A stretch of 64,000 bases of DNA, from NCBI GenBank assembly GCA_963718525.1, contig OY970355.1:640001-704000 (forward strand). The letters are read 5' to 3'. Positions 27,492 through 60,055 of the stretch are shown here, one piece after another. How positions within the stretch are numbered: position 1 is the first letter of the stretch; every line of letters begins with the position of its first letter. The notes beneath the pieces are model-generated. The model did no database searches, was not told where the DNA came from, and saw nothing but the letters and a program-made list of their open reading frames with translations. The position numbers and the translations under genes are program-made. This DNA comes from Candidatus Dormiibacterota bacterium. GTDB lineage: Bacteria > Chloroflexota > Dormibacteria > Aeolococcales > Aeolococcaceae.

Positions 27492-27504
27492 TAATGCCAA
27501 ATTA
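27492..27504 (+). repeat. Junction motif copy TAATGCCAAATTA (exact)
   Basis: Separates the RR/HK/SBP/HAF module from the sugar operon; ACCGACTAATC follows (TAAT at +98). Confidence 0.8.
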
Positions 27505-27651
27505 CACGTTCCGATGTGCGCCTCCTGAATTCGCGGTGAGACCTTCGACGTCAAGATCTGACCCAGCTTATCGGCTGCTCCGCACCGACTAATCGGGGTA
27601 GTGGGAGCTACCGCCGTCGCTAGACATAGCAACGAGACGATTTCGCCCGCG

Positions 27652-28509
27652 CTAGTCCCGATTCATCGCTTCCACGCTCGCAACCTCAGAGATGACCCCT
27701 TCCAACACATGGCGACTCTGCGCCGCCATCGCCCCTGGGTCTCGATCGGTCTCATCCAGCTCGACGGTCCACCACGGTAGATCGTTCACTGCGGCCAATT
27801 CCCGCACGACCCCGCGGATGTCAACAATGCCCTCGCCGAGGGGCAGGAATCGGCCGTCCGCGTAATCCTTGAAGTGCACATACTCGACGCGGTCACGATA
27901 GTCACGAACGATTACAGCAGCATCGCCGCCGCCCGCCACGAGGTGCGCCGTGTCGGGGCACAGGGAGATCTCGGTCAGGTCGAGAATGCGAGACAGCTGC
28001 TCGGGGCTTTCGCTAATCGTGCCCAGATGCGGATGGTACGCCGCGCGCAATCCGTGGGTCTCGGCGAGCCTGACGACCCGGTCGAGTGACTTCGCGAGCG
28101 CCTCGTAGTCAGCGTCGCGTGGGCCCTCGGCGCGAATGGCACCCCCGCCGACGACAAAGAACATTGCGCCAAATCGTTGCGCCGATTTCATCGCCACCTC
28201 GAGACGCGCGAATTCGTCGTGCGCTACATCAGCGTAGATGAAGCTCGCTCCGCTGTAGACGGCGACCAACACCAACCCCGTATCTCGCATGAGCGTGTCA
28301 AAGCGCGCCGGCTCATTTGCGTAGCGTTGCAAATTGCCGTCGAAGATTTCGAAGCCCGCGTAGCCAGCGCGGGCAATGTCGCGCAGCGCCTGCTCATCAG
28401 AGCCATGAGTCAGGTAGAAGAGGTCGCGCGGGGACGTGACCCCGCTGGGGTGCCCGACGACGCCACCCCAGGTGTTGGTTTGGTAAGCGAGGCGCGGGGT
28501 GCTGATCAG
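27652..28509 (-). CDS. IolE-like sugar phosphate isomerase/dehydratase (xylose-isomerase-like TIM barrel), probable CTG start
   Basis: AYQTNTWGG, GYAGFEIF, YHPHLGT, CPDTAH, YVHFKD, FLPLGEG, VELD; frame stays open 59 codons upstream of the track's TTG. Confidence 0.85.
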   Translation of the reverse strand: MISTPRLAYQTNTWGGVVGHPSGVTSPRDLFYLTHGSDEQALRDIARAGYAGFEIFDGNLQRYANEPARFDTLMRDTGLVLVAVYSGASFIYADVAHDEFARLEVAMKSAQRFGAMFFVVGGGAIRAEGPRDADYEALAKSLDRVVRLAETHGLRAAYHPHLGTISESPEQLSRILDLTEISLCPDTAHLVAGGGDAAVIVRDYRDRVEYVHFKDYADGRFLPLGEGIVDIRGVVRELAAVNDLPWWTVELDETDRDPGAMAAQSRHVLEGVISEVASVEAMNRD

Positions 28510-28513
28510 GTTG

Positions 28514-29962
28514 CTATTCCTCAGCCGTCGCCAGGAGTGCGGCCGACTCGCGCAGTGCCTGCGGACGCCGGTTGTCGATCCATTTCATCGCGACGAAACC
28601 GATGACCATCCAGGCGATGAAGATGTATGGGACGATGTTGAACGGGAAGGCAGGAATCGGCCAGAACGTAACCCATAGCACCGGGAGCAACAGAAGGGTG
28701 CCGAGGATTGGAATCACCCCATGGCGCCAAATGTTGAACTCGTCCCGCCTCATGCGGCGGAAGAAGACGACGAGCGCGATGTTGGCAATTCCATACATGA
28801 CGATGAGGCCGACCGTAATTACTGTGCCGAGGAAGCCGAAGACTAGTCCGCCACCGAGCCAGATGCCGACTATGGCCATGAGCCCGAGGCTCAGAATGGT
28901 TTGCACGTGTATGGCCGTTGAAGGTGTGCGGTGTACTGGATGAACTCGGGTCAACGGAGCCGGCAACGCGCCGCCGCGAGCCATGGTGTAGGCAACCCTC
29001 GAGCCGGCGTTGGTGGCGGCAATGCCAATCGCGAGAGCGCCGTTGAGCAGGGCGATGAAGATCAGAAACCACACCGGTCCCCAGAGCTTATGCGCCAGAA
29101 CGTAGTACGGATTCGCATTGGTCGCGAACGCAGCGAGGTTTGATGTTCCCCATCCGATCGCACTCGCATAGGACATGAAGATGAAGAACACCCCAACCAT
29201 GACAACCGAGAGCATGATGGCCTTGGAGAGAAACTCCTTTGGTCTGCGTGTCTCCTCGGCCAAAGGAGCGGCCGACTCGAACCCGCTGAGGGCGGTGATG
29301 GAGAAGGCGACGCCGTAGAGGATGCCCGAGATGCCCGTCGGGCTCGTCCCGGGATTCAGCGGCGCGGTGGCACTGGAGCCTGGGCCGGGATGGATAAGGA
29401 AGGTGATCCCGAGCGCGAACACGAGGAGGAGCTCAAGGGATCCCATGATGACTGCGGTACGCGTGCTGATGCGTATGCCCCGGTAGGTAAGCCCCCAAAC
29501 CAGGAGGATGAACGCCCCCCCAAAGACCCACCAGGGGATATTGATGCCGGTGTTGGTCTGCAGGATGTCCGCCATGAGGAACCCAAGGAAGCCAAGCACG
29601 GCGGGTGGCGTCAGCGGGTCATAAGCGAAGTAACTCCACGCGGTGAGGAATCCCCAGCGGGGTCCGAGCCCTTGGCCCACGAACGTGAAATAGCCACCGC
29701 TCGACGGGATGTAGCGAGAGAATTCGGCAACCGTGTTCGCGATGACAAGTCCGACCAAGACAGCCAGAGCGAGCGATATCGGCATGGCTGCGCCGGCGTT
29801 GAGGGCGATGAGCGGAAAGAGAAACACGACGCTGACTGACGGACCCATGTGGGTGATGGCCTGGAACAGCACATCCACCAGTCCGAGTGCTCCGCGATGC
29901 AGCTGTGTAGCTTCGGCGCGAACGGTCTGCACGCCCGTGACAGGTGCCACAGTCTCACTCAT
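28514..29962 (-). CDS. APC-family amino acid/amine permease
   Basis: About 12 TM helices; PSSGGYF and SGFESAAPLAEET motifs; ATGA overlap with the upstream gene. Confidence 0.92.
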   Translation of the reverse strand: MSETVAPVTGVQTVRAEATQLHRGALGLVDVLFQAITHMGPSVSVVFLFPLIALNAGAAMPISLALAVLVGLVIANTVAEFSRYIPSSGGYFTFVGQGLGPRWGFLTAWSYFAYDPLTPPAVLGFLGFLMADILQTNTGINIPWWVFGGAFILLVWGLTYRGIRISTRTAVIMGSLELLLVFALGITFLIHPGPGSSATAPLNPGTSPTGISGILYGVAFSITALSGFESAAPLAEETRRPKEFLSKAIMLSVVMVGVFFIFMSYASAIGWGTSNLAAFATNANPYYVLAHKLWGPVWFLIFIALLNGALAIGIAATNAGSRVAYTMARGGALPAPLTRVHPVHRTPSTAIHVQTILSLGLMAIVGIWLGGGLVFGFLGTVITVGLIVMYGIANIALVVFFRRMRRDEFNIWRHGVIPILGTLLLLPVLWVTFWPIPAFPFNIVPYIFIAWMVIGFVAMKWIDNRRPQALRESAALLATAEE

Positions 29963-31260
29963 GACGCGTGCTCGGCTGCGATCTGAACGGTCTTCGGCAA
30001 CAGGTGATGGATCACCTTGCGGTAGGCAGCGGCAATCTGGTCGCATTGACTATCGGTGAGGTTCGACGGCACCGCCATGAGGACACCACGGGAGAAGATT
30101 TCGTCTGACTTAGGAAGCGCTCCCTTCTCGTACGAGTACTGGCTCTGGGCGTTCTCTGGCGCATCCCATGGCCAACTGCTGCCAGGGACGTAACCAACCT
30201 TGCGAGTCAGCATCGGCATCTGTGAGTAGATGTGGGTGCCATACGTCGCGACATGGTGAGTCCACTCTGGGACGCCTTCCGCACGAAGCGCCTCCGCGGC
30301 TTTCCTGGCCGCCTCCTCGGTTGGCCAATACGTAACCATGAAGCTTCCGCTCAAGCTGTCTGCGGTCGCGTGCGGCCTGAAGCGGATCCCCTCAATACCT
30401 GCCAATCCCTCTTTGATGCGCTGCTGCGCATGCTGCATGCTCTCGATGATCTTGGGGAGTTTGGGAATCTGAGCGGCGGCCATGGCTTGGACGAGTGGGC
30501 TGAGAAGGCGGCCTTCGCCCCACATGACATCGTCTCCAGGGACATACGTCACCTTGTGCATGATCCTGGTCAACCCAGCGTCACGAGCAATCTCTGCGCG
30601 GGCGCCGAGACCCTTGTCATTGGAAATCATGAACCCGCCGACATATCCGGTAGCGTGTTTGTTGTATTGAAGACTGAAGACACCGATGTCTCCGAAGAGG
30701 CCGACGAATTTCCCGTTGTATTTGCCACCGGAGTCTTGAGCGCAATCCTCAATGACCCGTAGCTTGTGGCGCCGTGCCACTTCCATCAGCGGAGCGACAT
30801 TCGCAGCCGCGCCGAGCATGTGAACCACGATGACGGCTTTGGTACGACGTGTGATCTTCCGTTCCATGTCGGCTGGATCCATGCCGAGGTCTTCGCCGAC
30901 CTCGACGAGAACGGGGATGGCGCCATGGGCAACCACGCAGGTGACCGTCGGGATCCAACAGATACCCGGCACGAGCACCTCCATCCCTGGACCGATGTCG
31001 AGTGCCTTTATGGCCGCGAACAACCCCCCGGTGCCGCTGTTGACGGCGGCAGCCCACCTCGCGGAGAAGAATTGACGCGCAATCGGTGGAAGATCGTCTG
31101 CGAGTCCGTGTCTGCGTTCGAGCGCTTCGATGACCAGCCGCCGTTCGTCGGCATCGATGAAATGTGTTCCTGGCCACTCGCGTCCCAGTGGCTCCGTGAT
31201 CAGACGCGGGCCACCATCGATTGCCAGGGCCTCTCGCTCTCCGATGCTAAGTGTTGTCAC
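29959..31260 (-). CDS. DegT/DnrJ/EryC1/StrS PLP aminotransferase
   Basis: NSGTGGL, VHMLG, IEDCAQ, FSLQYNK (PLP Lys); GGAGG RBS before GTG 31260. Confidence 0.92.
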   Translation of the reverse strand: MTTLSIGEREALAIDGGPRLITEPLGREWPGTHFIDADERRLVIEALERRHGLADDLPPIARQFFSARWAAAVNSGTGGLFAAIKALDIGPGMEVLVPGICWIPTVTCVVAHGAIPVLVEVGEDLGMDPADMERKITRRTKAVIVVHMLGAAANVAPLMEVARRHKLRVIEDCAQDSGGKYNGKFVGLFGDIGVFSLQYNKHATGYVGGFMISNDKGLGARAEIARDAGLTRIMHKVTYVPGDDVMWGEGRLLSPLVQAMAAAQIPKLPKIIESMQHAQQRIKEGLAGIEGIRFRPHATADSLSGSFMVTYWPTEEAARKAAEALRAEGVPEWTHHVATYGTHIYSQMPMLTRKVGYVPGSSWPWDAPENAQSQYSYEKGALPKSDEIFSRGVLMAVPSNLTDSQCDQIAAAYRKVIHHLLPKTVQIAAEHAS

Positions 31261-31288
31261 GGCGCCAATCCTCCGGTTACAGCATTCA

Positions 31289-32386
31289 TCATGCGATCGG
31301 GACGGAGGTCCTCTCTGTTGAGGAACTCCGCACAATTGCTTCAATCAACTTCAGCGTTCGGTGTCCATCCGCGAAGGTCGCATAGGTGACCGGAGGCATC
31401 ACTCGCGGATCCAGGATTCGCTGATAGACGCTGGCCATGGTGCGCACGAGAGCGTCGCGCCATCCAAAGACGTGCCCAGCAGGTAGGGGGTCGTCGGGAG
31501 TCATGGTTGCATCGCGCATCAGCCACTGATTGGCTCCATCTCGCCGACCCAACCACAAACGATCGGGATCCTCTTGCGACCATGCGAGCGAAGCCTTCGA
31601 CCCGCTGACCTCAAACCACAGATGGTTCTTTCGGCCGGCGCTGACCTGAGACACCACCAAGCTGCCAATCCCGCTGTTGTTCAGTTCGAACGAGATGACA
31701 CCGCAGTCATCGAGCTCAGCGGCGTGCCACGCCCCATTGGCCCCCATGCGTCGCTCTGGAACAGCGGCTCGCAAGCGACCGGACACACTCGTGATTGCAC
31801 AATTTGTGACGTGCTCCACGAGGTCGAACCAATGGCTCCCGATATCGGCGACGGCTGCGGACAGGCCGGCTTCGGTTTGGTTGAGCCGCCAGTTGTGATC
31901 AGTGGCGTGCAAGAGCCAGTCTTGCGTGTAGGCGCCGTGAGCCAGGTAGACATCCCCGATCTCGCCTCGCTGGATGAGCGCGCGAGCGTGCTGTATGAGA
32001 GGGTACCCGCGATAGTTGAAGTTGCAGGCGTGGACGAGCGAGGCTGCCTCAGCGCGTTGCAGCAATACCAAGGTCTCATCGGAGGTTGTGGCAAGTGGCT
32101 TCTCCGCCACAACGTGCTTGGCGTGCTCCAACGCGGAGAGGCAGAGTTGGAAGTGTTCGCTGTTCTTCGTGCAGACGTGGACCACGTCGACGTCGGGACT
32201 CTCGACCAGGGTTGCATGGTCGGCCGCAGTCCTGATGTTGTGTTGCGTGGCAAAACGCTGCGCCCGCTCAGGGATGCCACTTGAGACGGCGACAACTGCA
32301 ACCCCCGGTATGGTGGACAGAGCAAGAGCATGCTCATGAGCCATCCACCCGGTACCGAGAATCGCTGCACGAATCACGACGTCCAC
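31289..32386 (-). CDS. Gfo/Idh/MocA NAD(P)-dependent oxidoreductase
   Basis: ILGTGWMA, HVVAEKPL, NFNYR, DIGSHW, SQVSAGRKN, LPAGH. Confidence 0.92.
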   Translation of the reverse strand: MDVVIRAAILGTGWMAHEHALALSTIPGVAVVAVSSGIPERAQRFATQHNIRTAADHATLVESPDVDVVHVCTKNSEHFQLCLSALEHAKHVVAEKPLATTSDETLVLLQRAEAASLVHACNFNYRGYPLIQHARALIQRGEIGDVYLAHGAYTQDWLLHATDHNWRLNQTEAGLSAAVADIGSHWFDLVEHVTNCAITSVSGRLRAAVPERRMGANGAWHAAELDDCGVISFELNNSGIGSLVVSQVSAGRKNHLWFEVSGSKASLAWSQEDPDRLWLGRRDGANQWLMRDATMTPDDPLPAGHVFGWRDALVRTMASVYQRILDPRVMPPVTYATFADGHRTLKLIEAIVRSSSTERTSVPIA

Positions 32387-33342
32387 CAGGGGTGAGGGCG
32401 AGGCTCGGTAAACAAACAGTCTTTCAGAAACACCACGGCTTGCGACAACCCCTCATCTGGAGAGGCGAGGATGTCTTCGTGCTCGATGCTGATGACGTCG
32501 TCATAGCCCACCTCGCGGAGGGCGCCGAAGAACCGCTTCCACAACAAGCTGTCGTGACCGTGACCAACGGTCCGAAAAGACCACGAACGCGCCTCGATCT
32601 TCTCCAGAGGGGTCGTGTCGAGGACGCCATTGCGACGGACAGCCTCGGAATTGAAGTCGACGTCCTTGGCGTGAACGTGGTACGTGGCATCGCCAAGCGT
32701 GCGCACGGCCACGACTGCGTCGATGCCCTGCCAGAAGAGATGACTCGGATCGAGGTTGGCGCCGATTTCGCCACCCACCGCTTCCCGAAGCCGGAGCAGG
32801 GTCGCGGGGTTGTAGACGACAAAGCCGGGGTGCATTTCAAAGCAGAGCTTGCGAACCCCGTGGTTGCGAGCAAACGTCGCTTGCTCCTTCCAATAGGGGA
32901 TGACCACGTCCTCCCACTGCCAGTTGAGGATGGTCAGATAGTCGGTGGGCCACGCACAGGTCACCCAGTTCGGTTGCTTTGACGCGGGCGAGTCTCCTGG
33001 GCACCCCGAAAAGAGCGTCAGCCTTTCCACATCAAGGCGCTCGGCGAGCAAGACTGCCTGCTCGAAAACGCGATGGTGTTCTCGGGCAACGTCGCGATTT
33101 GGATGCAGAGGGTTGCCATGACACGCGAGGGCGCTGATGGTCAGACCACGCCTGTCCAGCGCATGTCGATACTCCTTGAGCTTCGTCGCATCGGCCAGCA
33201 ATTCATCGGCAGGGCAATGTGTGTTCCCGGGATAGTTGCCGGCGCCGAGCTCGACGGCGGTCAACCCGAGGGCGGCGATCCGGTCGAGGGCATCCTCAAA
33301 GCGCAGATGCTGGAGTACGACGGTGAAGACTCCGAGCTGCAT
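32374..33342 (-). CDS. Sugar phosphate isomerase/epimerase (AP-endonuclease-2/xylose isomerase TIM barrel)
   Basis: CHGNPLHP, FSGCPG, EMHPG, DPSHLFWQG, HVHAKD, SIEHED. Confidence 0.92.
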   Translation of the reverse strand: MQLGVFTVVLQHLRFEDALDRIAALGLTAVELGAGNYPGNTHCPADELLADATKLKEYRHALDRRGLTISALACHGNPLHPNRDVAREHHRVFEQAVLLAERLDVERLTLFSGCPGDSPASKQPNWVTCAWPTDYLTILNWQWEDVVIPYWKEQATFARNHGVRKLCFEMHPGFVVYNPATLLRLREAVGGEIGANLDPSHLFWQGIDAVVAVRTLGDATYHVHAKDVDFNSEAVRRNGVLDTTPLEKIEARSWSFRTVGHGHDSLLWKRFFGALREVGYDDVISIEHEDILASPDEGLSQAVVFLKDCLFTEPRPHPWWTS

Positions 33343-33347
33343 GATGT

Positions 33348-34556: not shown

Positions 34557-34566
34557 TCGGGTCGGG

Positions 34567-34595
34567 ATTCTAAGGCGGAAGTTGCACGATGTCAA
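34567..34595 (-). promoter_or_regulatory. Sigma70-type promoter TTGACA-N17-TAGAAT for the ROK operon
   Basis: Minus strand TTGACA tcgtgcaacttccgcct TAGAAT; ATG 10 nt after the -10 box. Confidence 0.8.
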
Positions 34596-35110
34596 TCAAA
34601 AGTCTGTCGCGACTGTGCAGAAGTCGGGAGTTCGTGGGCTGAAGGGTGGCGTCGCCGAATTGACCTCGGGCGTGAGGCTCCCCGTAGGTCGGCGCCGATC
34701 GGCCCGACCCGGCCCCCGAATGGCGTCCTGAGGCGGCGCCTCGTATGCGCACCTTCGGATGAAGGTGCGATCCGTCCCTGGCGCTGGGTAGGTGCCGCGC
34801 GGGCCACCCGCCAGGGCGCCGCCTCGATGGTGTCGAGGAGCGTCGTCTTGAGGGGAGGGGCCAGGCAAACCTCGCGGGCGACTAGGTGGCGGTCGTCGAC
34901 GCCGATTCAGGGGGTTATATCGGCCTTGCCCGGCCCCACTCTCGACGATACAGACCTCCGGCGATCCTGGCAGTGCGCCCGGTCACAAGCGGGCATTGAC
35001 TTCCAGCAGCGATCGGCCATCGACTAATCCAAAGCGCGGCAACCATTCACTGGGTGTTAACTGCAGCGGATCGCACCCGAGGGAGCATCGGTCGTATTGA
35101 CATTTGCACC

Positions 35111-37564: not shown

Positions 37565-37590
37565 ATAAGGCGTTCACTCCGCGGGTACGA

Positions 37591-37611: not shown

Positions 37612-37656
37612 CTCCGACGGGGGGTCGATACTTGCCGCAGGAAGCGTGTTGCAGCA

Positions 37657-40252
37657 ATGAACCTGCCGACCCAGCAGACCCCGTTTATTGGGCGGGTGCT
37701 CGAACTCCGTTCAGCTGGCGCCCTGCTCCGCGCTCACCGGCTGCTGACGCTCGTTGGCGCCGGCGGCTCAGGAAAGACACGGCTCGCGGTGCAACTCGCC
37801 GCTGGGGCAGGCGAGCGGTTCCCTGACGGTATCTTCTGGGTACCGCTAGCATCCGTTCGCGACCCCGACCTGGTAGAGCAGACCATCGCCCGATCCGTCG
37901 GCGCCAACATTGAGCTCGTTGAGCACCTGACCGGTAAGCGCGTCCTCTTGGTCCTGGACAATATGGAGCAGGTCGTGGCGGCGGCGGACATGCTGGGGTT
38001 GCTCCTCGGGGCGTGTCCCAGCCTCCATGCGCTCGTGACGAGCCGAGAGCCGCTGCGCATCGCCCCCGAGCAGCGCTTCACCGTGGATACGCTCAGCACC
38101 CCTGACGCGGTTGCGCTCTTCAACGAGCGGGCCCGCGCAGTGGATTCGACGTTCGTGGAGGACGCGACGGTGGAGGCCATCTGCAGGCGGCTCGACTGCC
38201 TGCCACTTGCCGTCGAGCTCGCAGCCACTCGGGTCAACGTGCTGACACCCGACGTCCTCCTCGCGCAACTCGAGCGCCGCCTGCCGCTCCTCACCGGCGG
38301 ACGGCGTGACATGCCCGAGCGCCATCAGACGCTGAGAGCGACGATCGAATGGAGCGAGGATCTGCTGCAAGCAAGTGAACGGTCCATCTTCCATCGTCTC
38401 GCGATCTTCCCGGCGAGCTTCGATCTTTGGGCTGCGGAAGCGGTGTGTATGACAAACCTCGCGGCCCTCTCCTCGCTCGTCGACAAATGCCTGGTGACTC
38501 GCACAAGTGGCAATCGCTTCGCGCTGCTGGAGACAGTCCACGAGTTCGCAGACGAGCACTTGACCCCGAGCGAGCGAGACGAACTCGCCTGCCGGCATGC
38601 GGAGTACTTCGTTGTGGCCGCCGAGGTTGCGTCAGGTGCCCAGAGTTGGCCCACCAACCCTGAGACTTTTGGGAAGCTGGACGACGACATCGCGAATCTC
38701 CGCGCAGCGCTCGCGTGGACGCGGTCGAAAGGCCTGAACGAGCTGACGCTTCGGCTTGGGATCGCGCTCTCCAGGTACTGGATCGATCGGGGTCATCGCC
38801 ACGATGCCTGCACATGGCTTGAGAGCGCACCGCTCACTGACGCCGCAGTTCCTACACCGCTTCGCGCAGCATCCCTGGAGGCAGCTGGGCTGATCGACTA
38901 CTTCGTGGCCGCCGCTTACGACGAGGCGGAGCAGTACTACAGGCAGAGCCTGGCGCTCTATCGCCAGCTCGGAAACGAGCAACAGGTTGCGTTCCTGCTC
39001 AACCGTGTTGGTCGCATCGCGATGTTGCGTGCAGATCTCGTCAAAGCCAACAGCTTTCATCTCGACGCGCTGGCGTTGTACGACGAGATGGCCGATAACG
39101 CCGGGCGTGCAGCGACGCTGCACCTGCTCGCTGAAGCCGCGTCCAGGCAGCGCCGATTTGAAGATGCCGAGCGGCTCTTTACAGAGGCGATTCGCTTGGC
39201 GCGTACGGCGTTTCCGGGACAGGTTCGGCACTCGCTGCACAGCCTCGGTGATCTCGAACTCGACCGCGGCAACTATGGATGTGCGTTCGGGTACTACCAG
39301 GAGAGCCTGGAGCTGACCAGCAGGAGCGAGCGCCGCAGCCTCATCCTGCGCGTCGCGGGGTTCAGCAGCGCCCTCGCTGGTCTGGGTGCGTACCCTCTCG
39401 CAGCGCGGCTCTGGGGTGCCGTCGACGCCAATGAGCGCACGCTAGGTTTTCGCATGCTCTCCGACGAGCGAAAACGCTATGAACGATGGGCAGACACCAC
39501 ACGGAGTCGAACTCGGTGAACAGGCGTTCCGCGCCGCCTTTACGGAGGGCGCGGGCCTTCAGATTGAGGAGGCGCTCAGCGAGGCGGCGGGGTACACCGC
39601 CGCGGCGCTAATACAACCCGGTCGCCCTGCGCCACCCGTCGCCGGCGGTTTGGCCCTTTCAACTGAAGCCGGAAGGTTCGAGCAAGAGGGAGAATACTGG
39701 ACGATCGAGTACAACTCGAGGATCCTGCGGGTTCGGGATAGTAAGGGAGTTCGTGTGCTCGCCTATCTCCTCGCCGACCCGGAACGTCCGTATACCGCTC
39801 TGGACCTCGAGCGGCTGGGCGCACCCGGAGGCGAGGTAATCGCTCGAGCGGTTGCCTCGGGCGACGTGGGCGAGCTCCTCGATGACGAGGCGCGGAGAGC
39901 ATACCGGGCTAGAGTTGCGGAGCTGCATGAGGCGATCGAGGTAGCTGAAATCTGGGGTAAGCCAGAGGAGAGCGGCCTCCTGCGCGAAGAGATGGACTTC
40001 ATCACCCACGAGCTGAGCAGAGCACTCGGGCTGGGAGGGCGACCGCGCCACGCGGGATCGATTGCTGAGCGGGCTCGGTTGAATGTCACGCGGGCGGTGA
40101 GGTCGGCGATGCTGCGCATCTCCTCAGTCGACGCCGCCCTCGGGGGTCATCTCAACGCGACCGTCCACACGGGAACCGTTTGCGTATATCGCCCAGACCC
40201 CCGAGCAACCGTTGTTTGGCATGTTGCGATCGGCGTCGCTCAACGCCTCTAA
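37657..40252 (+). pseudogene. STAND-type ATPase (NB-ARC-like)-TPR regulator with C-terminal domain, frameshifted near 39505
   Basis: NLP...FIGR, GAGGSGKTRLA, LVLDNME, TSRE, LDCLPLAVELAA, TPR helices; continuation VELGEQAF...FEQEGEYW... lies in another frame (ORF 39479-40252). Confidence 0.85.
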
Positions 40253-40287
40253 AGATTCGCTCGTCCGACAGTGCCGGACCCGCAACC

Positions 40288-40300
40288 TAATGCCAAATTA
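40288..40300 (+). repeat. Junction motif copy TAATGCCAAATTA (exact)
   Basis: 36 bp after the ATPase stop; ACCGACTGATC follows (TGAT at +99). Confidence 0.8.
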
Positions 40301-40688
40301 GCTGTTCAAGCTCTCTCAGGTGGGCTCCAGGGTTGCGAATTCAACAGCGGTGTCTGATCGGGTCGACTCCGGGGCTGAGGACCGACTGATCTGAAACGCG
40401 CCACGTCGCATCTCGCGAGTTAGAGGTCAACCGCTCTCACAATTGATCAACGCACTGTCCGTCCCCGCAAGATGATGCGCGAGGGACGGGGGAGCAGTTC
40501 GGGATGCGCGCGGGGATGCTCGCCATATCCGACGATCTCACCAGAGGAGCCGTGTTCCAGGCCGCCAAAGCTTCGTCTGGACTGGCAATACGGCAAAACG
40601 ACGTCACACACGCGGGCTGGCGCCGAGATGCTGTTCGCGCGCTTGAACATCGCGGCACGGTCGCCGCAGCAAGCATTGCATAGCCGGA

Positions 40689-41490
40689 GTGGTCGGTAGT
40701 TCGACGTCAAGCGGGCCAATCAGCCTCGGCGTCAAGAAACGTCTTATCATTCGGGTTCCAGTGGGCGAGGCTATCGACGACGAGCTAGTCGAATTCTATT
40801 ACCAATGGAACCGCTTCGAGAAGACCAATGACGTCGAAATAATCGACTTCGACCTCTTGCAGCGCTCGGCCGATTTTCCCGGCGCGTTCAATACACGAGA
40901 GGATGCCGCAGCCCTTGGATCCGCGGCGACCCCGAGTGCACCATCCTCCACGAAGTTGGTGGGCACGTCCTGCAGGCAGCGGCCTGGAAGGAACGACTGA
41001 AGGCGGGTGCGATGCCGCCCGTATGTGGATTAACTACGCTGCATGGTCCCGAGAGCTACGTTCAGGAGGGGGTGGCCGAGACCTTGTCCTGGTTCTTCCG
41101 CGCCCACTCCTGTGTGAGGCAGGCGAACTCGCCGTGCGCCTCCACTGCATGTCGGAGTTGTATTGGAACGATGCCTTCATCATGGCGGGTCGAGGTCGAT
41201 CTGCTGACGAGGTCCTTAAGTTTCTCGACGACCACATGCTGACCTACCGGACCCCTGAGCAACGGCGCAAGCGCCTCGAGACCGCCACACAAGATCCCCT
41301 ATCGCGGGCGTACCTGTACTCGTATGGGATTTCGATATACCACCATCGTCTCTTTGCAGAGCACTCCAGCCCCGACCAGAACCGCAACTATCTAGCGCAT
41401 GTCTTCGGCAGGACATACTCCTATCGAGATCTTGCTCGCTCGTACGACGGTTGGCACGGTCAGTCGAACGATCGGGTACAAGGCTACTGA
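40689..41490 (+). pseudogene. Fragments of unknown gene(s)
   Basis: Protein-like stretches (RLIIRVPVGEAIDDELVEFYYQW...; ELYWNDAF...AYLYSYGISIYHHRLF) in broken frames; no family recognised. Confidence 0.35.
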
Positions 41491-41523
41491 GGCTCCTCGC
41501 CAGCCTCGACATGTGCCGGTCTG

Positions 41524-41766
41524 CACATACGGGTACGGCTCGTCGAGCGGCCGCTCTCGGAACTCGGCAAGCTCCTCGTCGAGCAGCGCGCAGATCCGGC
41601 TCACCTCGCTGCGGCTGATGCTGCAGCCTCCCAGCGCGGCCATGAGGTCGTCGACCTTGCGGGTGCTGGTGCCGAGCACGTAGGCCTCCTGGACCACCGC
41701 GGTGAGTGCTCGGTCGATGCGTCGCCGTGGCTCGAGCAAGGTCGGGAAGAAGCTGCCCGTGCGCAC
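41524..41766 (-). mobile_element. IS256-family transposase internal fragment
   Basis: RTGSFFPTLLEPRRRIDRAL..VVQEAYVLGTSTRKVDDL...ISRSEVSRIC..LDEE...FRERPL..PYPYV; no ends or DDE completion. Confidence 0.9.
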
Positions 41767-42029
41767 GCCGCGCTCGTCGATGGATTTCCAGCTCGACGAC
41801 GGCGGCATCTGGGCCGTGGGCGAGTGCGCAGTGTGTGGGCGGGCGTTCTGCGCCATAACGAAGAATGGAAAGGTGCGGCCGTACAAGCGATCGGACGACT
41901 GCCTCCAGAGACAACATCATCGCCACCGTTCGCGCCGCACAAGAATTACTTACCGAAGCGTTGCGCGTGTTGGAGAAGTTGGAATGACCGAATCGGCATC
42001 ACCAGACGGCTACGGTCTTGGGGACAAAT

Positions 42030-42549
42030 TCACCACCTCGTCGAGTTATCTGTGATTGCGCTGCCCTTGCTCCGGCCGTTGCGCGCACTCCGCTTGTTGA
42101 GGGTGGTCAATATCTTCAGGGCCGGTCTGATTCTGACCAATGCCCTTCGACGCCTTCGCGGAGTACTAACCCATCACGGATTGCACTACGCACTATTCGT
42201 CGTCCTCGGGGTCGTCGTCGTGTGCGCCGCTCTTGAGTTCGAGTTCGAAGACGGGACCCACGGAGCGAACATCCAAAACTTCGGCGATGCCCTATGGTGG
42301 GCGATCGTCACGGTTACGACCGTTGGCTATGGCGACAAGTTTCCCGTGTCTGCGGGCGGCCGGGGGGTTGCTGTCGTGCTGATGCTTGTCGGGATCGGCC
42401 TGATTGGAATCCTAACCGCTACGGTCGCGAGCTTCTTCATCGGGCAAGGAGCTGATGAAGAGAAGGCGGCGCTGCAGCAGCGCCTCGACAGGATCGAGGG
42501 GATGCTGGGGCAAATCCTCGCTGGACGGACCGAATCGGACGATGGTTAA
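42030..42549 (+). pseudogene. 5'-truncated voltage-gated potassium channel (S4 + pore)
   Basis: LRPLRALRLLR S4; DALWWAIVTVTTVGYGD selectivity filter; S1-S3 missing. Confidence 0.8.
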
Positions 42550-42885
42550 CCGACCAAGGAAATACCCAGCGCAGATCGGCTGCTGGAAAGATGCCGCCCT
42601 CTCTGGGCGCAGACGCAAGATCCGATGCCATCCAGGAAGCGAACTCACCGCGCCGCGCCATACGTGCTCGCGCCAGGCGAGATCCGCCGGAGCCCGCTGT
42701 CCGTGCCGAGCGTCAAGGGCCGATTCGTCCGATACCGCTGGGCTGGTCACCGTGTGCGAGGGGACGCTGGCACCCTGGAAGCCGGGCCCACCACTGCACC
42801 TGCACACGTCAAGTATCAACCGAAGCCGTGTCAAGGATCAGCCGCACCCCTCTTGTCAGGAATCAGCCGGATCTATACATCACAT

Positions 42886-42915
42886 TGGTTGGGGAGAGAG
42901 GATTCGAACCTCTGA
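42886..42915 (-). other. tRNA 3'-end fragment (T-arm + acceptor 3' strand + CCA), att-like
   Basis: Minus strand TCAGAGGTTCGAATCCTCTCTCCCCAACCA; no D-arm or anticodon arm upstream. Confidence 0.8.
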
Positions 42916-43096
42916 TGGCTGATCCAGATTACTCGTTCCTCGTTGCACCTCCTGAAATAGCCGGTGCCCCGCCTGGTCGCGAAGCTGCGCTCACATCCGG
43001 GAGACGGGGATTATCTCCACGCCCGCTAGGTCGATCTCACGTTCGGCTGCAAACTGCTACGACCGGTACGTAGCAGCAGGCAAGTCCGGCCGCGAT

Positions 43097-50534: not shown

Positions 50535-50565
50535 GTTCTGATCCAAAATCAGCATCCAAAATCAG
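50535..50565. promoter_or_regulatory. Candidate GntR operator (TGAT-N5-ATCA; tandem ATCCAAAATCAG x2)
   Basis: Direct repeat at 50541-50552 and 50554-50565; 15/17 match at 53984-54000. Confidence 0.6.
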
Positions 50566-50745
50566 GAGGGCTCAGGCCGGAGCTTGTCCATCCCCCGGGC
50601 TGCCAGTTCAGGGCATCAGCTGTTCGAATGTGCCGCGACGGGCGCTCTCGTCGCGGTAGGCTTGCTCGTCATGGGTACGCGGGCGGCGCCTCGAAGCCTG
50701 GGAACTCCTCCAGCGAACATTGGGTCATGGGTGAGCGGGCTGGCC

Positions 50746-51462: not shown

Positions 51463-51517
51463 CGGCTAACTGCGCCACCGTGAACGATCGGCTGAAGAGG
51501 ACGATGCCAATACCACT

Positions 51518-53905: not shown

Positions 53906-53983
53906 TCGTGCCCCCGGACAGCCCTGAATTCGACACTAATGACTCACCATCACATCGTCGTTCGGCAGACCGCGGCCACTCAT

Positions 53984-54000
53984 GTTCTGATCTAATATCA
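53984..54000. promoter_or_regulatory. Second candidate GntR operator GTTCTGATCTAATATCA
   Basis: In the divergent promoter region; matches 50535-50551. Confidence 0.55.
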
Positions 54001-54100
54001 TACTTACCCAACCCGATGAGCACCGAGGGGAACTCGGATCGATATAGTCTGACGAGCTAAGCCGGCTCGGCGGCGGGGAGAATAGTCAGGAGGTTCTGGC

Positions 54101-55105
54101 GTGATGACTTCGGCCACGATGGAGCTACGAGAGATGGTCCGCTTCAGACCGCGCCGGTTGGCGCATGGCAACTTCTTCGTGAGCGACCTTGAGAGATCCA
54201 CCTCCTTCTATGTCGACGTCTGCGGACTCAACCTCGTCTATCGAGAGCCTGGAATCCACGCTAACTTCCTCAGCAACGGTAGCAGTCATCACGACGCCGC
54301 TCTGATGGAGATATCGCGGGAAGCCAGGGTCGGACGGGGTGGCCATGTTCAGGTGCCGGCCGGGCGGGGGCGCACCCCGGGACTGAACCACGTCGCCTTC
54401 GAGATGGAGAACGAGGCGCTCCTGGTTGCTGCCTATCGGCGAGCGGTAGCGGCGCATGTTCCCATTCACCGCACCGCCGATCATCAGATCTCTCATAGCG
54501 TCTATCTCTTCGATCCCGATGGCAACTACCTCGAGATCTACTGGGACGCGACCAAGGACTGGCGCGGTGTCTACAAGGCAAATGAGAATGAACTCCTGAC
54601 GGCAACGTGGGATCCTAACGCCGCGGCTCCCTCAGATGACCGCAATTACAATCCAGATCCCCAGTACTCGACGGTGCCAGCAGCTCTTCTGCATCCAAAA
54701 CGGACGTCCCGCGCCGCTCTGCTCACCCCTGATGTCCAAAGGCTTCAAGACTTCTACGTCCAGATCGTCGGGCTCGACGTTGTAGCCGAAGATCCGGAGA
54801 GTAGATATGTAACGCTTGCCGGTACTGTTGACGGTCAGGACATTTCGCTTTTGGTGACGCACGATGGGCGGAAAGGCTTGCACCACTTCAGCTTCGAGCT
54901 CGAGGAGGAGGCGGAACTAGCGGATGCGATCGGAAGATTGAAGGCAGGCAGGATTCCTATCCTCGCGGAGATCGACAACCCGACCAAGCACAGCGTGGCG
55001 ATTGCTGATCCGGACGGCATTGTCCTCGAGTTCTTTGTGAAGCGCCGGGTTCCGCTCTCGGCTTATGCCCCTGCTGAAAATGAGCCGATTGAGTTTGTGG
55101 TTTAG
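54101..55105 (+). CDS. Two-domain VOC protein (extradiol dioxygenase-like)
   Basis: LAHGN, HHD, GLNHVAFE, H..SHSVY..DPDGN.LE; AGGAGG RBS. Confidence 0.87.
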   Translation: MMTSATMELREMVRFRPRRLAHGNFFVSDLERSTSFYVDVCGLNLVYREPGIHANFLSNGSSHHDAALMEISREARVGRGGHVQVPAGRGRTPGLNHVAFEMENEALLVAAYRRAVAAHVPIHRTADHQISHSVYLFDPDGNYLEIYWDATKDWRGVYKANENELLTATWDPNAAAPSDDRNYNPDPQYSTVPAALLHPKRTSRAALLTPDVQRLQDFYVQIVGLDVVAEDPESRYVTLAGTVDGQDISLLVTHDGRKGLHHFSFELEEEAELADAIGRLKAGRIPILAEIDNPTKHSVAIADPDGIVLEFFVKRRVPLSAYAPAENEPIEFVV

Positions 55106-55187
55106 GTGCCGGCGGAGTGCCTAAGGTCGATCACCAAATTCCGCCGGATTTGCAACGACCTCTAGCGATCTCGGCTGAAGCCGCGAA

Positions 55188-56366
55188 GTGAGACCTGGAC
55201 ACGCGGAGATCGTCGGCGGTGGGCTGGCTGGGTTGACCGCAGGCTTGGCGCTGGCAAAGAGCGGCTGGCGCGTGCGAGTCCATGAACGCTCCCCCGAGTT
55301 GCGGGAGATCGGCGCTGGTCTGTACCTCAAAGAGAACAGCCTGCGAGTCCTTGAGCGGCTGGGTGTCTTTGACGAGGTTGCAGCTCACGGTGTCCGTCTA
55401 GAGAGAATGGATATCCATGACGTGGATCGAGATCGCTGGTTGATCCGCGAGGTCAGTCAGCTTCGCGTGTATAACGTCGTCCGTACGGCGTTGCACCGCA
55501 CGCTTGCGCAGGCGGCGGTTGCGCGCGGAGCCGAAGTCCTGACTAGCTCCACGGGAGTCCACGCAGAGCCTTCGGGTCGGCTCCGTCTGGCCTCGGGAGA
55601 GACGGTAACCGCTGACTTGGTGGTCGGGGCGGACGGGATTTACTCGAAGATCCGCGAATCGGTCCGCCTCGGTCGCGCACTGCGGATCCTTCCCGAAGGC
55701 GGCACCCAACTCTTAGTGAAGCGAACCGAAGCTGAGTCAAAGGCTTGGAGCGTCGAACACTGGTCGGGCAAGCTCCGGATGCTAACCACCCCATGCAGTG
55801 CTACCGACACGTATGTCGCGCTTATGGGTCCCGAATCGGACAAGCGCGCGTCAGCGGTGCCGATCGACAAGCGACGTTGGTCGAACGCTTTTCCCAATCT
55901 CATCGACATAGTCGGGAGGATGGGCGACAAGGATGGAGTCCACCACACAAACGTGAAGGTCGAGACGCGAGGCTGGGCATCAGGCAAAGTAGCAATCGTA
56001 GGCGACGCGGCGCACGGGCAACCGCCAAACCTTGGCCAGGGCGCCGGGCTCGCCATCGCGAACGGGTTGGCGCTTGCCGACATGCTCCAGCGGTACGACA
56101 CGGTCGAGGAAGGTCTCCTCGCATGGGAGGCAACCTTTCGTCCGGTGGCCATGGCAACGCAGCGTTGGTCCTGCTGGTATGGCAACCTCGCCTACCGGTG
56201 GCCGACCAGGCTGGGCAACTACCGCATGCCGGCACTTGAGGGGATCAATGCCTTTCCGCCGCTCGGCAATCGCTATTTCTGGCTCTGGCAAGGCGGCCTT
56301 TCCGACTACAAACAGCCGCGCTCGCTCACCAAAGCGCTCCGTGTGCACCGGCGCGACAAGGCCTAA
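55188..56366 (+). CDS. FAD-dependent monooxygenase, MHPCO (3-hydroxypyridine-carboxylate ring-cleaving oxygenase)-like
   Basis: AEIVGGGLAG, HERSPELR.IGAGLY, GADG, R....PC....Y..LM.P..D.R...VPID...W...FP, GDAAH..P.LGQGAG. Confidence 0.85.
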   Translation: MRPGHAEIVGGGLAGLTAGLALAKSGWRVRVHERSPELREIGAGLYLKENSLRVLERLGVFDEVAAHGVRLERMDIHDVDRDRWLIREVSQLRVYNVVRTALHRTLAQAAVARGAEVLTSSTGVHAEPSGRLRLASGETVTADLVVGADGIYSKIRESVRLGRALRILPEGGTQLLVKRTEAESKAWSVEHWSGKLRMLTTPCSATDTYVALMGPESDKRASAVPIDKRRWSNAFPNLIDIVGRMGDKDGVHHTNVKVETRGWASGKVAIVGDAAHGQPPNLGQGAGLAIANGLALADMLQRYDTVEEGLLAWEATFRPVAMATQRWSCWYGNLAYRWPTRLGNYRMPALEGINAFPPLGNRYFWLWQGGLSDYKQPRSLTKALRVHRRDKA

Positions 56367-56442
56367 TTCCGCGCCTTCGTGTCGAGAGGTCGCGATGGGG
56401 TGTCGTGATGATCCATCGACGCGTTCCTACTCGATTTCGCCG

Positions 56443-57288
56443 TCAATGTGCGCCGGTTAGAGGCGTCACCAACCTGCCGAGGCCCTGCACCTCGACCTCG
56501 ACGACATCCCCGGGCTTCATCCACACTTTGGGATCACGACCCTGAATAACGCCTTCTGGCGTGCCCGTGGCAATGAAGTCACCGGGCTCCAGGGTCACAT
56601 ACTGACTGATGTAGCTGACGAGAGCGCGAACGCTGAACAACATATCTGATGTCGTGGAATCCTGCCGCAGCTCGCCGTTGAGCCAGCTCCGGATCGTGAG
56701 GTTCTGCGGATCGTCTACCTCGTCGGCTGAGACCAACTCGGGGCCTACGGGAAGAAAGCCGTCGAGCATCTTCCCGAGCAGGTACTGGCTGGTGCGGAAC
56801 TGGAGGTCCCGCGCTGACAGGTCATTGCAGTTGCAGTAGCCCCAGACATGGTCAAGAGCCTCCGCCTCTGACACCCGACGAGCGCGTCGACCGATGACCA
56901 CCCCGAGCTCCGCCTCATAGTCGTACTCGCGAACATCAGCAGGCAGCGTCACCGGTGATCCCGACGCGACGAGGGCATTGTTGAACTTAGAGAACAGCGT
57001 GGGAGTCGAAGTCGGCGTGAGGCCGATTTCGGCGGCGTGACGCCGATAATTCATACCGACGCAGAGGAGTTTGCCTGGCAACGGCACGCATAGGCCGTTG
57101 GTGCCAAGGTGGGTCGCCAAACGACCTACAGTCGCTGCGCGCTCAGCACGTATTCGAGCCCTTTCGCCGCCTGTAACAAGCTCACTCACAGAACGCGGCG
57201 CATCCCCGTCGGTTAATATGGCCCAACCCTCCGGCCGTCGGATCGCGAGCCGTGGGCCATGCTCGGTAATGAGTCCTGTGACGCGCAT
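56443..57288 (-). CDS. Fumarylacetoacetate hydrolase family protein
   Basis: CVGMNY..H, DYEAELG, NDLSARD, GK, GDFIATGTPEG. Confidence 0.93.
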   Translation of the reverse strand: MRVTGLITEHGPRLAIRRPEGWAILTDGDAPRSVSELVTGGERARIRAERAATVGRLATHLGTNGLCVPLPGKLLCVGMNYRRHAAEIGLTPTSTPTLFSKFNNALVASGSPVTLPADVREYDYEAELGVVIGRRARRVSEAEALDHVWGYCNCNDLSARDLQFRTSQYLLGKMLDGFLPVGPELVSADEVDDPQNLTIRSWLNGELRQDSTTSDMLFSVRALVSYISQYVTLEPGDFIATGTPEGVIQGRDPKVWMKPGDVVEVEVQGLGRLVTPLTGAH

Positions 57289-57497
57289 AGGTACGCTTCT
57301 CCGGGGTCTTCTTCACGTTGTCGATGGGGTCGCGCGATGGTGGATAATGAGTTTCGCATAACCACGTGGCAGTGGCGTCTTTAGGAGCGCCGAGCTCCAT
57401 GGCGCGGCTCAGCGCGCTGGATTTCCGCACACCGCCGCGCTAGAATCCTGTAGGCCTGCGCTTGAGGCGCGTCGAACCGGGCTCGGAGGGTTGGAGA

Positions 57498-58100
57498 GTG
57501 TCCTGGAACATCAGTGGGTCGTACTTCGAGACCTGCTCGTGCAACGTGGTCTGCCCATGCACCGCGTAGCTCGCGCTTGGCGCCACACTCGATCGCTGCA
57601 AGGTCACACTCGTCTTCAATGTCCACAATGGAGACGTCGAAGGCACCCACGTCGGCGGCCTGACGGTGGCGGCGATCGTCGATACACCGAAGGTCATGAC
57701 CGACGGAAACTGGCGCGTCGGCGTGTTCATCGATGCTGCCGCTTCTGATGAGCAAGCGGAGAAGCTCGGTGGCGTCTTCTCCGGTGCGCTGGGCGGACCG
57801 ATGGCTGCCCTCGGGCCGCTGATCTCGGAGAATCTCGGCGTGCAGCGGGCTCCGATCGAGGTGCGTGAAGACGGGCTGCGCCACTCGATTCGGATCGGTG
57901 ACGCTGTGGACTTCGAGATCGAAGATGTCGTGCCATTCGGGGTGGAGAACGGCCAGCCCGCAAAGCTCACCGGTATCTTTCATCCGGCCGGTTCGGAGTT
58001 GACAGTGGCTCGGGCGACGCGGTCGAAGATCGATGGGTTCGGGATCGCGTACGAGGCCAAGGCTGCCTTCTCGACATCGAACTTCTCGTGGTCGGCCTAG
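57498..58100 (+). pseudogene. DUF1326 metal-binding protein with in-frame TAG at 57567-57569
   Basis: GTG SWNISGSYFETCSCNVVCPCTA*LALGATLDRC... continues in frame into ORF 57666-58100. Confidence 0.85.
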
Positions 58101-58936
58101 ATACCGTCGAGTCCACGTCCCTCGCGCAGAAGCAGCGCAACTCAGAGGGTCTGGCTCAACTCTTCGCCGCCGTGCGAACGCGCCTCGGCCTGGTCGCACT
58201 GCTGTTCGTGCTCGCGGGTCTCGCCTGGTGGGCCACCGTCAATCAGATGGCTGGCATGGACGCAGGTCCAGGCACAGACCTTGGGGCGCTCGGATGGTTT
58301 CTCGGCGTATGGGTGGTGATGATGGCCGCAATGATGTTTCCATCGGTTGCACCGACGGTGGCGCTATATGCACGGCTGACGCGCCAGCGCAGCCCGGTGC
58401 GGCCGCTCCTCTTCGCCTTCGCGTACCTGGCCGTGTGGGCCACCGTTGGACTGCTCTCGTACGGCCTCTTCGAGGTGGGCAAGACGTGGTTCGGGTCCCA
58501 GCTGGCCTGGAATGCCGGCGGGCGATGGGTCGCGGCGTCGATCCTTGCAGCGGCGGCGGTCTACGAACTGACACCGCTGAAGAACGTGTGCCTGGGGAAG
58601 TGCCGGAGCCCTCTCGGCTTCCTACTCGGCAACTGGCGTGACGGGGGGACTGGCGCGATCGAGATGGGAGCGAGGCACGCTGCCTGGTGCGTCGGGTGCT
58701 GCTGGGCGCTGATGGCGGCGCTGTTCGCTCTGGGCGTGATGAGCCTTGTCTGGATGGCGGTGGTTGCCGCACTCATTACGGTGGAAAAGACCATTCCGTG
58801 GCGTCGGCCGGTCGTGTGGGGGACGACCGCCATCCTGTTGGCGCTGGCCGTCATGGTAGCTGTCGCGCCGCACTCGGTGCCTGGGCTGGTCGTGCCTGGA
58901 AGCGCGGGGATGAGCACCATGGGGACGATGCATTAG
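58088..58936 (+). CDS. DUF2182 predicted metal-binding integral membrane protein
   Basis: WVVMMAAMMFPS, YELTPLK..CL..CR.P, CVGCCWALM, GVM...WM, EK. Confidence 0.92.
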   Translation: MVGLDTVESTSLAQKQRNSEGLAQLFAAVRTRLGLVALLFVLAGLAWWATVNQMAGMDAGPGTDLGALGWFLGVWVVMMAAMMFPSVAPTVALYARLTRQRSPVRPLLFAFAYLAVWATVGLLSYGLFEVGKTWFGSQLAWNAGGRWVAASILAAAAVYELTPLKNVCLGKCRSPLGFLLGNWRDGGTGAIEMGARHAAWCVGCCWALMAALFALGVMSLVWMAVVAALITVEKTIPWRRPVVWGTTAILLALAVMVAVAPHSVPGLVVPGSAGMSTMGTMH

Positions 58937-59024
58937 GGGCTGGCATCGATTCGTTTGCCCGACGAGCGCCGCCGCCGTCCGATCGGCGTATCGTCGATCG
59001 ACTTCTGGCTAAGAGGCGTTTGAA

Positions 59025-59681
59025 ATGCACTTCACCCGATTGAGCGAATCCGACGAATACCAGCGTCAGCGCGAGGAGCTACGGGTCGCCGAATTGGATC
59101 TCATTGATCAGGCCGAACGCGTGGCTGCATTGCGGCGCACGCTGCCGGCAGACACTGTTGTCGACGACTACCAGTTGATCGACGTCGCGAGCGGCGATCA
59201 CGTGCAGCTCTCGGAACTGTTCAGTGCTCCGGGCCGGCCACTGATCCTGTATCACTTCATGTACGGCAAAGCCCAGACGGACCCATGCCCGCTGTGCACG
59301 ATGTGGATCGACGGGTACAACGCAGCGGTGCCACATCTCACGCAGAACGCGGACTTCGTCGTGGTCGCTGCGGCTGATCCCGCCGCCATCGCAGCCCACG
59401 CGGCGTCTCGCGGCTGGAACAACCTGCGCCTGCTGAGCGCCGGCGGCACCACCTACAAGTACGACCTCGGCAGCGAGGACGCCGATGGCACCCAGATCGA
59501 GTCAATCTCGGTGTTCACTCACGCCGACGACGGTACCGTGCGTCACGTCTACTCCAAGGGGGCGCAGATGGCTGACGATCGACGCGAGCGGGGCATCGAT
59601 CTGCTGACGCCGGTCTGGAATCTCCTTGATCTCACACCGAATGGCCGCCCGCTCGACTGGTACCCCTCGTTGCACTACTAG
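59025..59681 (+). CDS. DUF899 thioredoxin-like protein
   Basis: R..L..AE..L......A.RR.LP, L.ELF, YHFM, CPLC, WNLLDLTP.GR. Confidence 0.92.
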   Translation: MHFTRLSESDEYQRQREELRVAELDLIDQAERVAALRRTLPADTVVDDYQLIDVASGDHVQLSELFSAPGRPLILYHFMYGKAQTDPCPLCTMWIDGYNAAVPHLTQNADFVVVAAADPAAIAAHAASRGWNNLRLLSAGGTTYKYDLGSEDADGTQIESISVFTHADDGTVRHVYSKGAQMADDRRERGIDLLTPVWNLLDLTPNGRPLDWYPSLHY

Positions 59682-59704
59682 TCGTTTCTATCTTTCGCAA
59701 AGAC

Positions 59705-59717
59705 TGATGCCACAGTA
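59705..59717 (+). repeat. Degenerate junction motif TGATGCCACAGTA
   Basis: 11/13 to the 13905 copy; ATCGACTGATC follows (TGAT at +99). Confidence 0.5.
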
Positions 59718-60055
59718 TCCCCTCCACCTCCAGGCCCTGCGCCACGAGCGTGCTGAACTCCGGAGGGTGGGCTAACCCGCCGAACCCGCTCTAGGTCATC
59801 GACTGATCCAGGCGACGCCGCCGCGAGAGGCTCCGGGATGGCACCTCGGTGGTTCCGTGGGCGCTTCCGGCGGGCAGCGGCCGCCGGTTCCTCGCCCTAG
59901 CCGCCAGCCGAAGCCCAGCCAGGCTGGTCCCCCGTCGTGTCGCCGCTGACGATCGCGCCGAATGGCGCAAGCGGTCCAATCGGCTGAGGGCAAGGTCAGC
60001 GTGGTACCGTCCCCGGTCACAGACGCGCGGCGTCCGGTAAGAAGCGCAACAGGGG

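Follow-up and report, generated by a model that had tools for sequence, protein, structure and literature searches.

A candidate four-box recombination site, built from a core and a second motif 98/99 bp away, at module borders in Candidatus Dormibacterota

We analysed a 64,000-nucleotide stretch of a Candidatus Dormiibacterota bacterium genome (assembly GCA_963718525.1, contig OY970355.1, positions 640,001 to 704,000), hereafter the window, in which short repeated sites separate blocks of genes. The blocks measure 2.6-16.8 kb between sites and each is coherent in content: a peptidase with a kinase, PAS/HD-GYP proteins, two DUF1349 proteins, a two-component set, an inositol-type operon, a beta-propeller and TPR pair, an ion channel, and a molybdoenzyme with an aromatic catabolism cluster. 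Eight sites are junction-type cores (4594, 11291, 13905, 20360, 27492, 40288, 42920 and 59705) and the ninth, at 35019, is a lone copy of a second motif, A(C/T)CGACT(A/G)ATC; all nine are on the forward strand. Every one of them is intergenic, against 17% of positions expected (p ~1e-7), by a gene list of 39 open reading frames (ORFs) that excludes two ORFs without family match overlapped by cores; three of the nine sit between converging gene ends. An earlier note on this DNA had proposed that the junction motif and the second motif, at a fixed distance, form one composite site of ~110 bp, and this unit is the subject here. The data comprise four genomes and ~114 kb in total: the window and three Candidatus Dormibacterota loci (L002, L007 and L013), found by a GTDB genome scan in which the distance between the two motifs, T to T, was left free over 84-114. 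Non-coding DNA common to the window and these loci is 85-94% identical, and one named homologue of the window's DUF899 protein (86%) comes from Candidatus Dormibacteria.

The second motif occurs exactly four times in the window, always on the forward strand (27584, 35019, 40381 and 59798), and three of the copies follow the junction motifs at 27492, 40288 and 59705 with T-to-T distances of 98, 99 and 99, as the note had described; its lone copy at 35019 is also an exact match. The copy it saw fused to the arm at 4588 is indeed fused to a core, with one mismatch, and a further fused copy at 20354 had been overlooked. Counted on both strands of the window, the 10-nt form AYCGACTRAT appears five times against 0.44 expected, a post hoc figure; because the pattern was derived from the very copies counted, we used other genomes as an independent test. 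The GTDB scan returned 14 loci. All three from Dormibacterota have the spacing 98, but they are copies of one homologous unit. The other 11 were rejected as chance matches since they come from unrelated genomes of 27-44% GC, lack a full-length hidden Markov model (HMM) match and have spacings scattered over 85-114, with none at 98/99 and one at 96. With matrices for core and second motif trained on the window only, and the second motif sought over +20 to +300 of each core, L002, L007 and L013 yielded nine further genuine cores. The best second motif lay at 95-100 in six of these held-out cores, at 67 in one, and was missing from two, so the fixed spacing is borne out beyond the window. The same matrix scan also listed cores read in reverse and three weak matches ascribed to chance, which were not counted. 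An HMM built from five non-window units retrieved all three window units as its top matches (E 6e-8 to 2e-4); an interior-only HMM found one of them at E 0.009, a second at E 1.6 and the third not at all. The sequence between the two motifs had been called largely unrelated. This is true among the three window units, whose interiors resemble one another at chance level (z 0.8, -0.1 and 2.0), but it does not extend to the comparison between window and other genomes, in which 9 of 15 interior pairs were matched by at most 1 in 200 shuffles, and the interior contains a weaker copy of the box described below.

Alignment of 17 independent cores resolves a left box, TRA, seven variable bases, TYA and a right box. 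The right box scores at least 5.7 bits in 14 of the 17 under leave-one-out scoring, and 7 nt separate TRA from TYA in 19 of 20 cores. The variable bases take the form of 7 different 7-mers among the 17 cores, while the flanks are constant; to the left of the cores, conservation was not seen to extend past the 6-nt box into any arm. Strong inverted box pairs with spacer 7 number 11, and none of the spacers 4-6 and 8-10 gives more than one, a count that shows other spacings to be absent and is no proof of 7, as its matrix was trained on 7-spaced cores. The reversed right-arm consensus reads AACGGATAAT and the second-motif consensus ATCGACTAAT. Using a matrix made from reverse-complemented right arms only, all 11 second motifs fall in the top 0.01-0.54% of background, which identifies the second motif as a direct copy of the ~10-bp core box. 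An inverted partner box stands beside none of the 11 (best background percentile 4-66%). ATCGAC, which the note took for a 6-bp crossover spacer like that of a dif site, is instead the outer part of the box. A weaker box copy, direct repeat 1 (DR1), lies 31-32 bp before the second motif, here direct repeat 2 (DR2); it is the best upstream match in 7 of 11 units and perfect in L007, and weak in several copies. A GAAYTC block lies near +50 of the unit. The second motif, direct and unpaired, closes a ~110-bp signal that contains the box four times, and the proposed composite of core and accessory element stands as an inverted core pair with same-box direct repeats. Such repeats accompany none of four simple cores with the overlap TACGAAA and 10 of 14 other cores (Fisher p 0.023). 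The suggested folding for attC-like hairpins gave z -0.36 to 1.14 on 6 single strands, no better than shuffles, with 0 consensus pairs across 10 aligned units, and this candidate was dropped. Two stray sequences were noted. At 11630-11654, 161 bp ahead of its TACGAAA core at 11797, L002 holds an extra symmetric core whose overlap, CGAGAAG, is entirely different, and the window holds a well-scoring box on the opposite strand (20547-20556), ~190 bp past the core at 20360, which may be chance.

Site orientation is uniform within each contig, regardless of gene direction (window 9/9, L002 6/6, L007 4/4, L013 2/2; 21 sites). Three copies of one unit have identities of 0.53-0.62 upstream of the core (random mean 0.50, maximum 0.63), 0.91-0.96 in the interior and 0.85-0.98 past DR2. 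Homology breaks at the core, which is the exchange point in these copies.

At the core at 42920 stands the displaced 3' half of a tRNA-Gln(CUG) gene (42885-42928), 94% identical to the intact gene of L007 (tRNA-Gln(ctg), 17216-17290). The fragment stops inside the anticodon loop and is joined directly to a core right box (top 0.005%), and the unit body that follows compares with unit 1 at z 5.1 (2 of 17 comparisons exceed z 4). The anticodon arm itself fits the core pattern with its loop as overlap, ranking 38 and 49 of 228,708 positions when the overlap is ignored. The array of L007 is situated 7 kb away on the 3' side of the intact tRNA-Gln(ctg) gene, in the same relative orientation as in the window. 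ARAGORN finds no whole tRNA in the window, so that a restored copy at the other island end would be expected past 64000, and Rfam assigns the window no family at gathering score and the region of the fragment none at E 1. In the passages cited (PMC8371274, PMC4383910), it is standard for tyrosine integrases to use an anticodon loop as 7-bp overlap and to leave a displaced tRNA fragment at the island end. The junction at the anticodon loop therefore places the crossover in the seven bases of the junction motif and not at ATCGAC; the predicted overlap is the variable 7 nt of TRA-N7-TYA. Separately, an insertion-sequence-like end with two TGTCA repeats adjoins the tRNA-Gln 3' end in both genomes (window 42820-42884; L007 15900-17210). 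L007 has a whole rve/HTH transposase element there, which we take to be of the IS481 type, and a repeat of 16 bp of the tRNA end on the element's other side; it seems to be a second system with the same tRNA target.

Architecture, spacing, co-orientation, border position, breakpoints and tRNA junction are read from the sequence as it stands. We think it moderately probable that a simple tyrosine integrase, a class described as lacking the arm-binding domain (PMC8138268, in part), acts in trans on these four-box sites, and that tandem integrase-less modules are excised and re-inserted at cores or at tRNA-Gln. Recombination itself is an inference, as are the binding of a protein to the boxes, the places where it cuts, the formation of circles, what the repeats do and which class of enzyme acts. 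The unit would be a one-sided, double-stranded tyrosine-recombinase site of ~110 bp. Two recombinase monomers would occupy the inverted pair of ~10-bp boxes, whose consensus is AWCGRNTRAT, with strand exchange taking place over the 7-nt overlap, and two further monomers could bind the direct repeats at +64 to +68 and +95 to +100, shaping the synapse as DR1 and DR2 do in the Tn4430 internal recombination site (IRS) and probably favouring excision between head-to-tail sites. A module would be the block between two cores, beginning with overlap, right box and accessory repeats and ending with a left box. Its excision would yield a circle with one whole site, able to enter another core or the presumed primary target, the tRNA-Gln(CUG) anticodon arm, and arrays would grow in tandem 3' of tRNA-Gln(CUG).

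Several findings weigh against this proposal, beginning with the small sample of genomes. No tyrosine recombinase gene was found in the window or the three loci (~114 kb) by comparing 50 and 53 ORFs with Pfam, 20 with NCBIfam and 42 with PHROGs and by a motif scan of all frames of at least 80 aa; the eight complete window modules keep att-like sites, and none has such a gene. We also found no integrase between the intact L007 tRNA-Gln and the last unit, no Tn3 transposase or tyrosine recombinase adjoining any unit, and no intI beside the array in 114 kb, sequence that does not reach the array ends of the window and L002. The tRNA fragment stands at the left of 1 of 20 cores only, and a T-loop pattern beside only one. 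That junction carries 6 overlap bases, not 7; the right box of the tRNA alone reaches only the top 3%; and most core overlaps are unlike the tRNA loop. For 35019, the homology with other genomes sets in at the second motif, and three related units whose interiors are alike (0.73-0.74) have little in common downstream (0.53-0.65 over 40 bp); both would fit a crossover at the second motif. (A local alignment that made 35019 a truncated unit was withdrawn, its upstream match being equalled by 208 of 1000 random segments.) Lastly, the overlaps of adjacent cores are often unlike, and an exchange of the classical kind, dependent on homology, would not join such cores. The exchange must therefore tolerate mismatch, as reported for GInts (PMC5385486), or skip to matching sites.

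Table 1. Positions of the site components and related features in the window.
Feature	Position	Strand	Basis or remark
Unit 1 core: left box, overlap TGCCAAA (27495-27501), inverted right box	27486..27510	+	
Unit 1 DR1 position (+67), weak	27553..27564	+	alignment; not among this unit's three best matrix matches
Unit 1 DR2, the second motif (+98), unpaired direct box copy	27584..27594	+	exact match, right-arm matrix
Unit 2 core, overlap TGCCAAA	40282..40306	+	core alignment/matrix
Unit 2 DR1 (+67, 32 bp before DR2)	40349..40360	+	best upstream match, low score
Unit 2 DR2 (+99)	40381..40391	+	exact match, right-arm matrix
Unit 3 core, overlap TGCCACA	59699..59723	+	core alignment/matrix
Unit 3 DR1 (+68)	59767..59778	+	best upstream match, low score
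Unit 3 DR2 (+99)	59798..59808	+	exact match, right-arm matrix
Simple core, ideal left box, overlap TACGAAA, no DR1/DR2, no unit body upstream	4588..4612	+	fused copy
Second simple core, overlap TACGAAA, no DR1/DR2	20354..20378	+	second fused copy
Core without direct repeats, overlap TGCCAAA	11285..11309	+	core alignment/matrix
Core without direct repeats, overlap TGCCACA	13899..13923	+	core alignment/matrix
Lone box, then ~85 bp 85-89% identical to post-DR2 DNA of L002, L007 and L013	35019..35110	+	homology starts at box
Displaced 3' half of tRNA-Gln(CUG), ending in anticodon loop (6/7 loop bases)	42885..42928	-	94% to L007 17207-17259
Core right box and start of unit body joined to tRNA fragment (left junction of the island), remainder decayed	42929..42960	+	right box 13.2 bits

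Some further features of the modules deserve mention. The ~85 non-coding bp after the box (window 35025-35110; L002 10099-10185), 85-89% identical across four genomes, precede the beta-propeller gene in the window and a CHAP gene in L002 and L007. Two divergent genes for large secreted proteins (14129-16846 and 16938-20234) share DUF1349-like repeats (70% DNA identity) and exactly fill one module. Paralogous segments in two different modules (21285-21870 and 39671-40256; 72% identical) encode a shared domain without family match, once as the C-terminal part of a response regulator and once within a stand-alone 257-aa ORF. A polyhydroxyalkanoate (PHA) synthesis block (phaB-like reductase, phaC, HTH) common to L002 (1-5225) and L007 (6150-9978) ends at a core in both, and one 330-bp piece of it is inverted between them. 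The small module 40288-42920 contains a transposase fragment (41392-41886; PHROG 2331), presumably IS256-like, with no link to the sites. In L013, a module between two units holds a large serine recombinase (351-2235) split into two frames (ORFs 351-941 and 748-2235), with HNH-like matches near its C-terminus and no match in the window, L002 or L007. Comparison of the sequence with plasmids and phages gave matches limited to short chance or generic tRNA ones.

Among the alternatives, the 98-bp piece could itself be a non-autonomous mini-element or empty cassette, with the junction motif as left end and the second motif as right end, both ending in TRAT; its circle would have a fused junction like those at 4588 and 20354, and longer elements would carry cargo. 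The TRAT repeat at both ends, the fused box-plus-core sequences (4588, 20354, L002 11791, L007 9995), the breakpoint at the 35019 second motif followed by a near-copy of the common overlap, the related units with unrelated flanks, and the resemblance of the bases past the second motif to the start of the tRNA loop are all consistent with this. We nevertheless consider it unlikely. Independent insertions would not share one direction (21/21 sites) or keep to block borders, and a right box follows the second motif in 0 of 11 cases. There is no unit body upstream of the fused sites either: the three that were scored (4588, L002 11791 and L007 9995) match at the box only, and 20354 has no match. 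Moreover, the three copies of one unit retain their downstream flank and differ upstream in three ways, with one alone ending in an ideal box.

Slightly more doubtful still is the idea that the units are relic attL ends, each with an arm region, left by the accretion and decay of ordinary tRNA-targeting islands in the manner of cis-mobilizable elements (CIMEs), with no present reshuffling. The tRNA junction at 42920, the decayed copies there and at L007 1149, and the lack of an integrase nearby would suit such relics, and tandem accretion with integrase-less members is described, as far as the cited text goes (PMC5704250, PMC3146451). Described arrays, though, bear the target-gene end at each border, which is not so for 19 of 20 cores here. 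Spacing and boxes have also been kept by selection while the interiors drifted to 49-74% identity, and one unit, at >90% identity, has three different upstream neighbours in three genomes, which implies recent exchange at non-tRNA cores.

We give very little credence to host XerCD acting on dif-like module borders, as in the pdif/dif islands of Acinetobacter, with the second motif as accessory element. It would account for the missing enzyme, and Xer is known to serve linear multi-gene module arrays that have no recombinase of their own (PMC12907356, in part). The dif site described there has a 6-bp centre and 11-bp arms; here the spacing is 7 nt in 19 of 20 cores, spacer 6 gives no strong pair, the two boxes have a common consensus, and the anticodon-loop junction points to an island integrase. 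Equally improbable are a regulator that loops DNA over 98 bp from boxes serving as operators, which fixed-spacing, intergenic, partly palindromic motifs would suit, and the serine recombinase of L013 as the enzyme, which its place between units might suggest, since site orientation is independent of adjacent genes, converging 3' ends flank 3 of 9 window sites, the core is where both the breakpoints and the tRNA junction fall, a search around unit 1 found nothing promoter-like, and the recombinase gene is split and without match in the other three sequences. A layout of two inverted boxes about 7 variable bases is that of the tyrosine family (PMC2847244, in the part cited).

Returning to a trans-acting tyrosine integrase, a broader and more tentative picture is an integron-like platform of Dormibacterota: a chromosomal array at tRNA-Gln(CUG) whose multi-gene cassettes possibly carry a double-stranded resolvase-style site in place of an attC hairpin, with one tyrosine recombinase excising and reordering whole operons in trans and with overlap variants and simple TACGAAA cores setting pairing and direction. 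The unit offers a signature precise enough to search for module borders in a soil phylum that is abundant and uncultured, and it suggests how Dormibacterota genomes trade whole operons for inositol use, PHA synthesis, signalling and secreted proteins. We found no description of the motif or of such arrays in Dormibacterota in the literature searched, most subscription papers and supplements lying outside the search. Should the enzyme be identified, the overlap variants that occur naturally would be a ready-made set of candidate orthogonal sites, and same-box accessory repeats would become testable outside TnpI and IntI1.

Compared with known systems, the unit is closest in layout to the TnpI/IRS system of Tn4430, where, in the passages cited, the 116-bp IRS combines IR1-IR2 with DR1-DR2, which share 9 bp, and the repeats limit recombination to head-to-tail sites (PMC2847244). 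Both have a length of ~110-116 bp, an inverted core pair, two same-box direct repeats on one side and a head-to-tail arrangement. The IRS, however, is a single site in a Tn3-family transposon next to tnpI that is cut with 6-bp staggers and resolves cointegrates, whereas here many sites border cargo, the overlap is ~7 nt and variable, one site forms a tRNA junction, and neither Tn3 transposase nor TnpI was found. The direct repeats of the integron site attI1 stand much nearer to the core than those of the present unit. Like the unit, attI1 is double-stranded, with inverted L and R boxes plus DR1 and DR2 (PMC8946536, in part), and integrons too are co-oriented arrays of exchangeable units; cassettes flanked by attI can excise, according to the part of the source cited (PMC12901181). 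Unlike integrons, the present arrays have no attC hairpin and no intI was found, and their modules are multi-gene, in either orientation, with their own regulators. The displaced tRNA 3' fragment at the anticodon loop and the succession of integrase-less modules downstream of a single RNA gene recall tRNA-targeted islands with tandem accretion and CIMEs, so far as the cited accounts describe them (PMC4383910, PMC5704250, PMC3146451); there the target-gene end recurs at each border, while here 19 of 20 lack it and have other overlaps. In the ssrA islands of Dehalococcoides the enzyme is a serine recombinase. Acinetobacter dif/pdif islands, which depend on XerCD, share the linear multi-module array, the varied cargo and the lack of a dedicated enzyme in the array, but their sites are 28 bp long with a 6-bp centre, and the cited passages describe no accessory repeats at +67/+98 and no tRNA junction (PMC12907356). 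SE, GInt, RIT and Tn554 have short imperfect end repeats and 6-7 nt spacers free to mismatch (PMC10214605, PMC5385486, in part), and such tolerance could explain the unlike overlaps seen here; each such element contains three or four recombination genes of its own, of which none was found in the modules. In summary, the site appears to work like one of the IRS/attI type in a CIME-like or dif-module-like array, yet it departs from each named family in a defining feature: the 6-bp centre of dif, the hairpin of attC, the Tn3 context of the IRS, the target repeat everywhere of tandem islands, and the internal recombinase genes of SE, GInt and RIT. Features otherwise known only separately meet in it: an accessory layout in the style of resolvase sites, an array like that of integrons, and landing at a tRNA.

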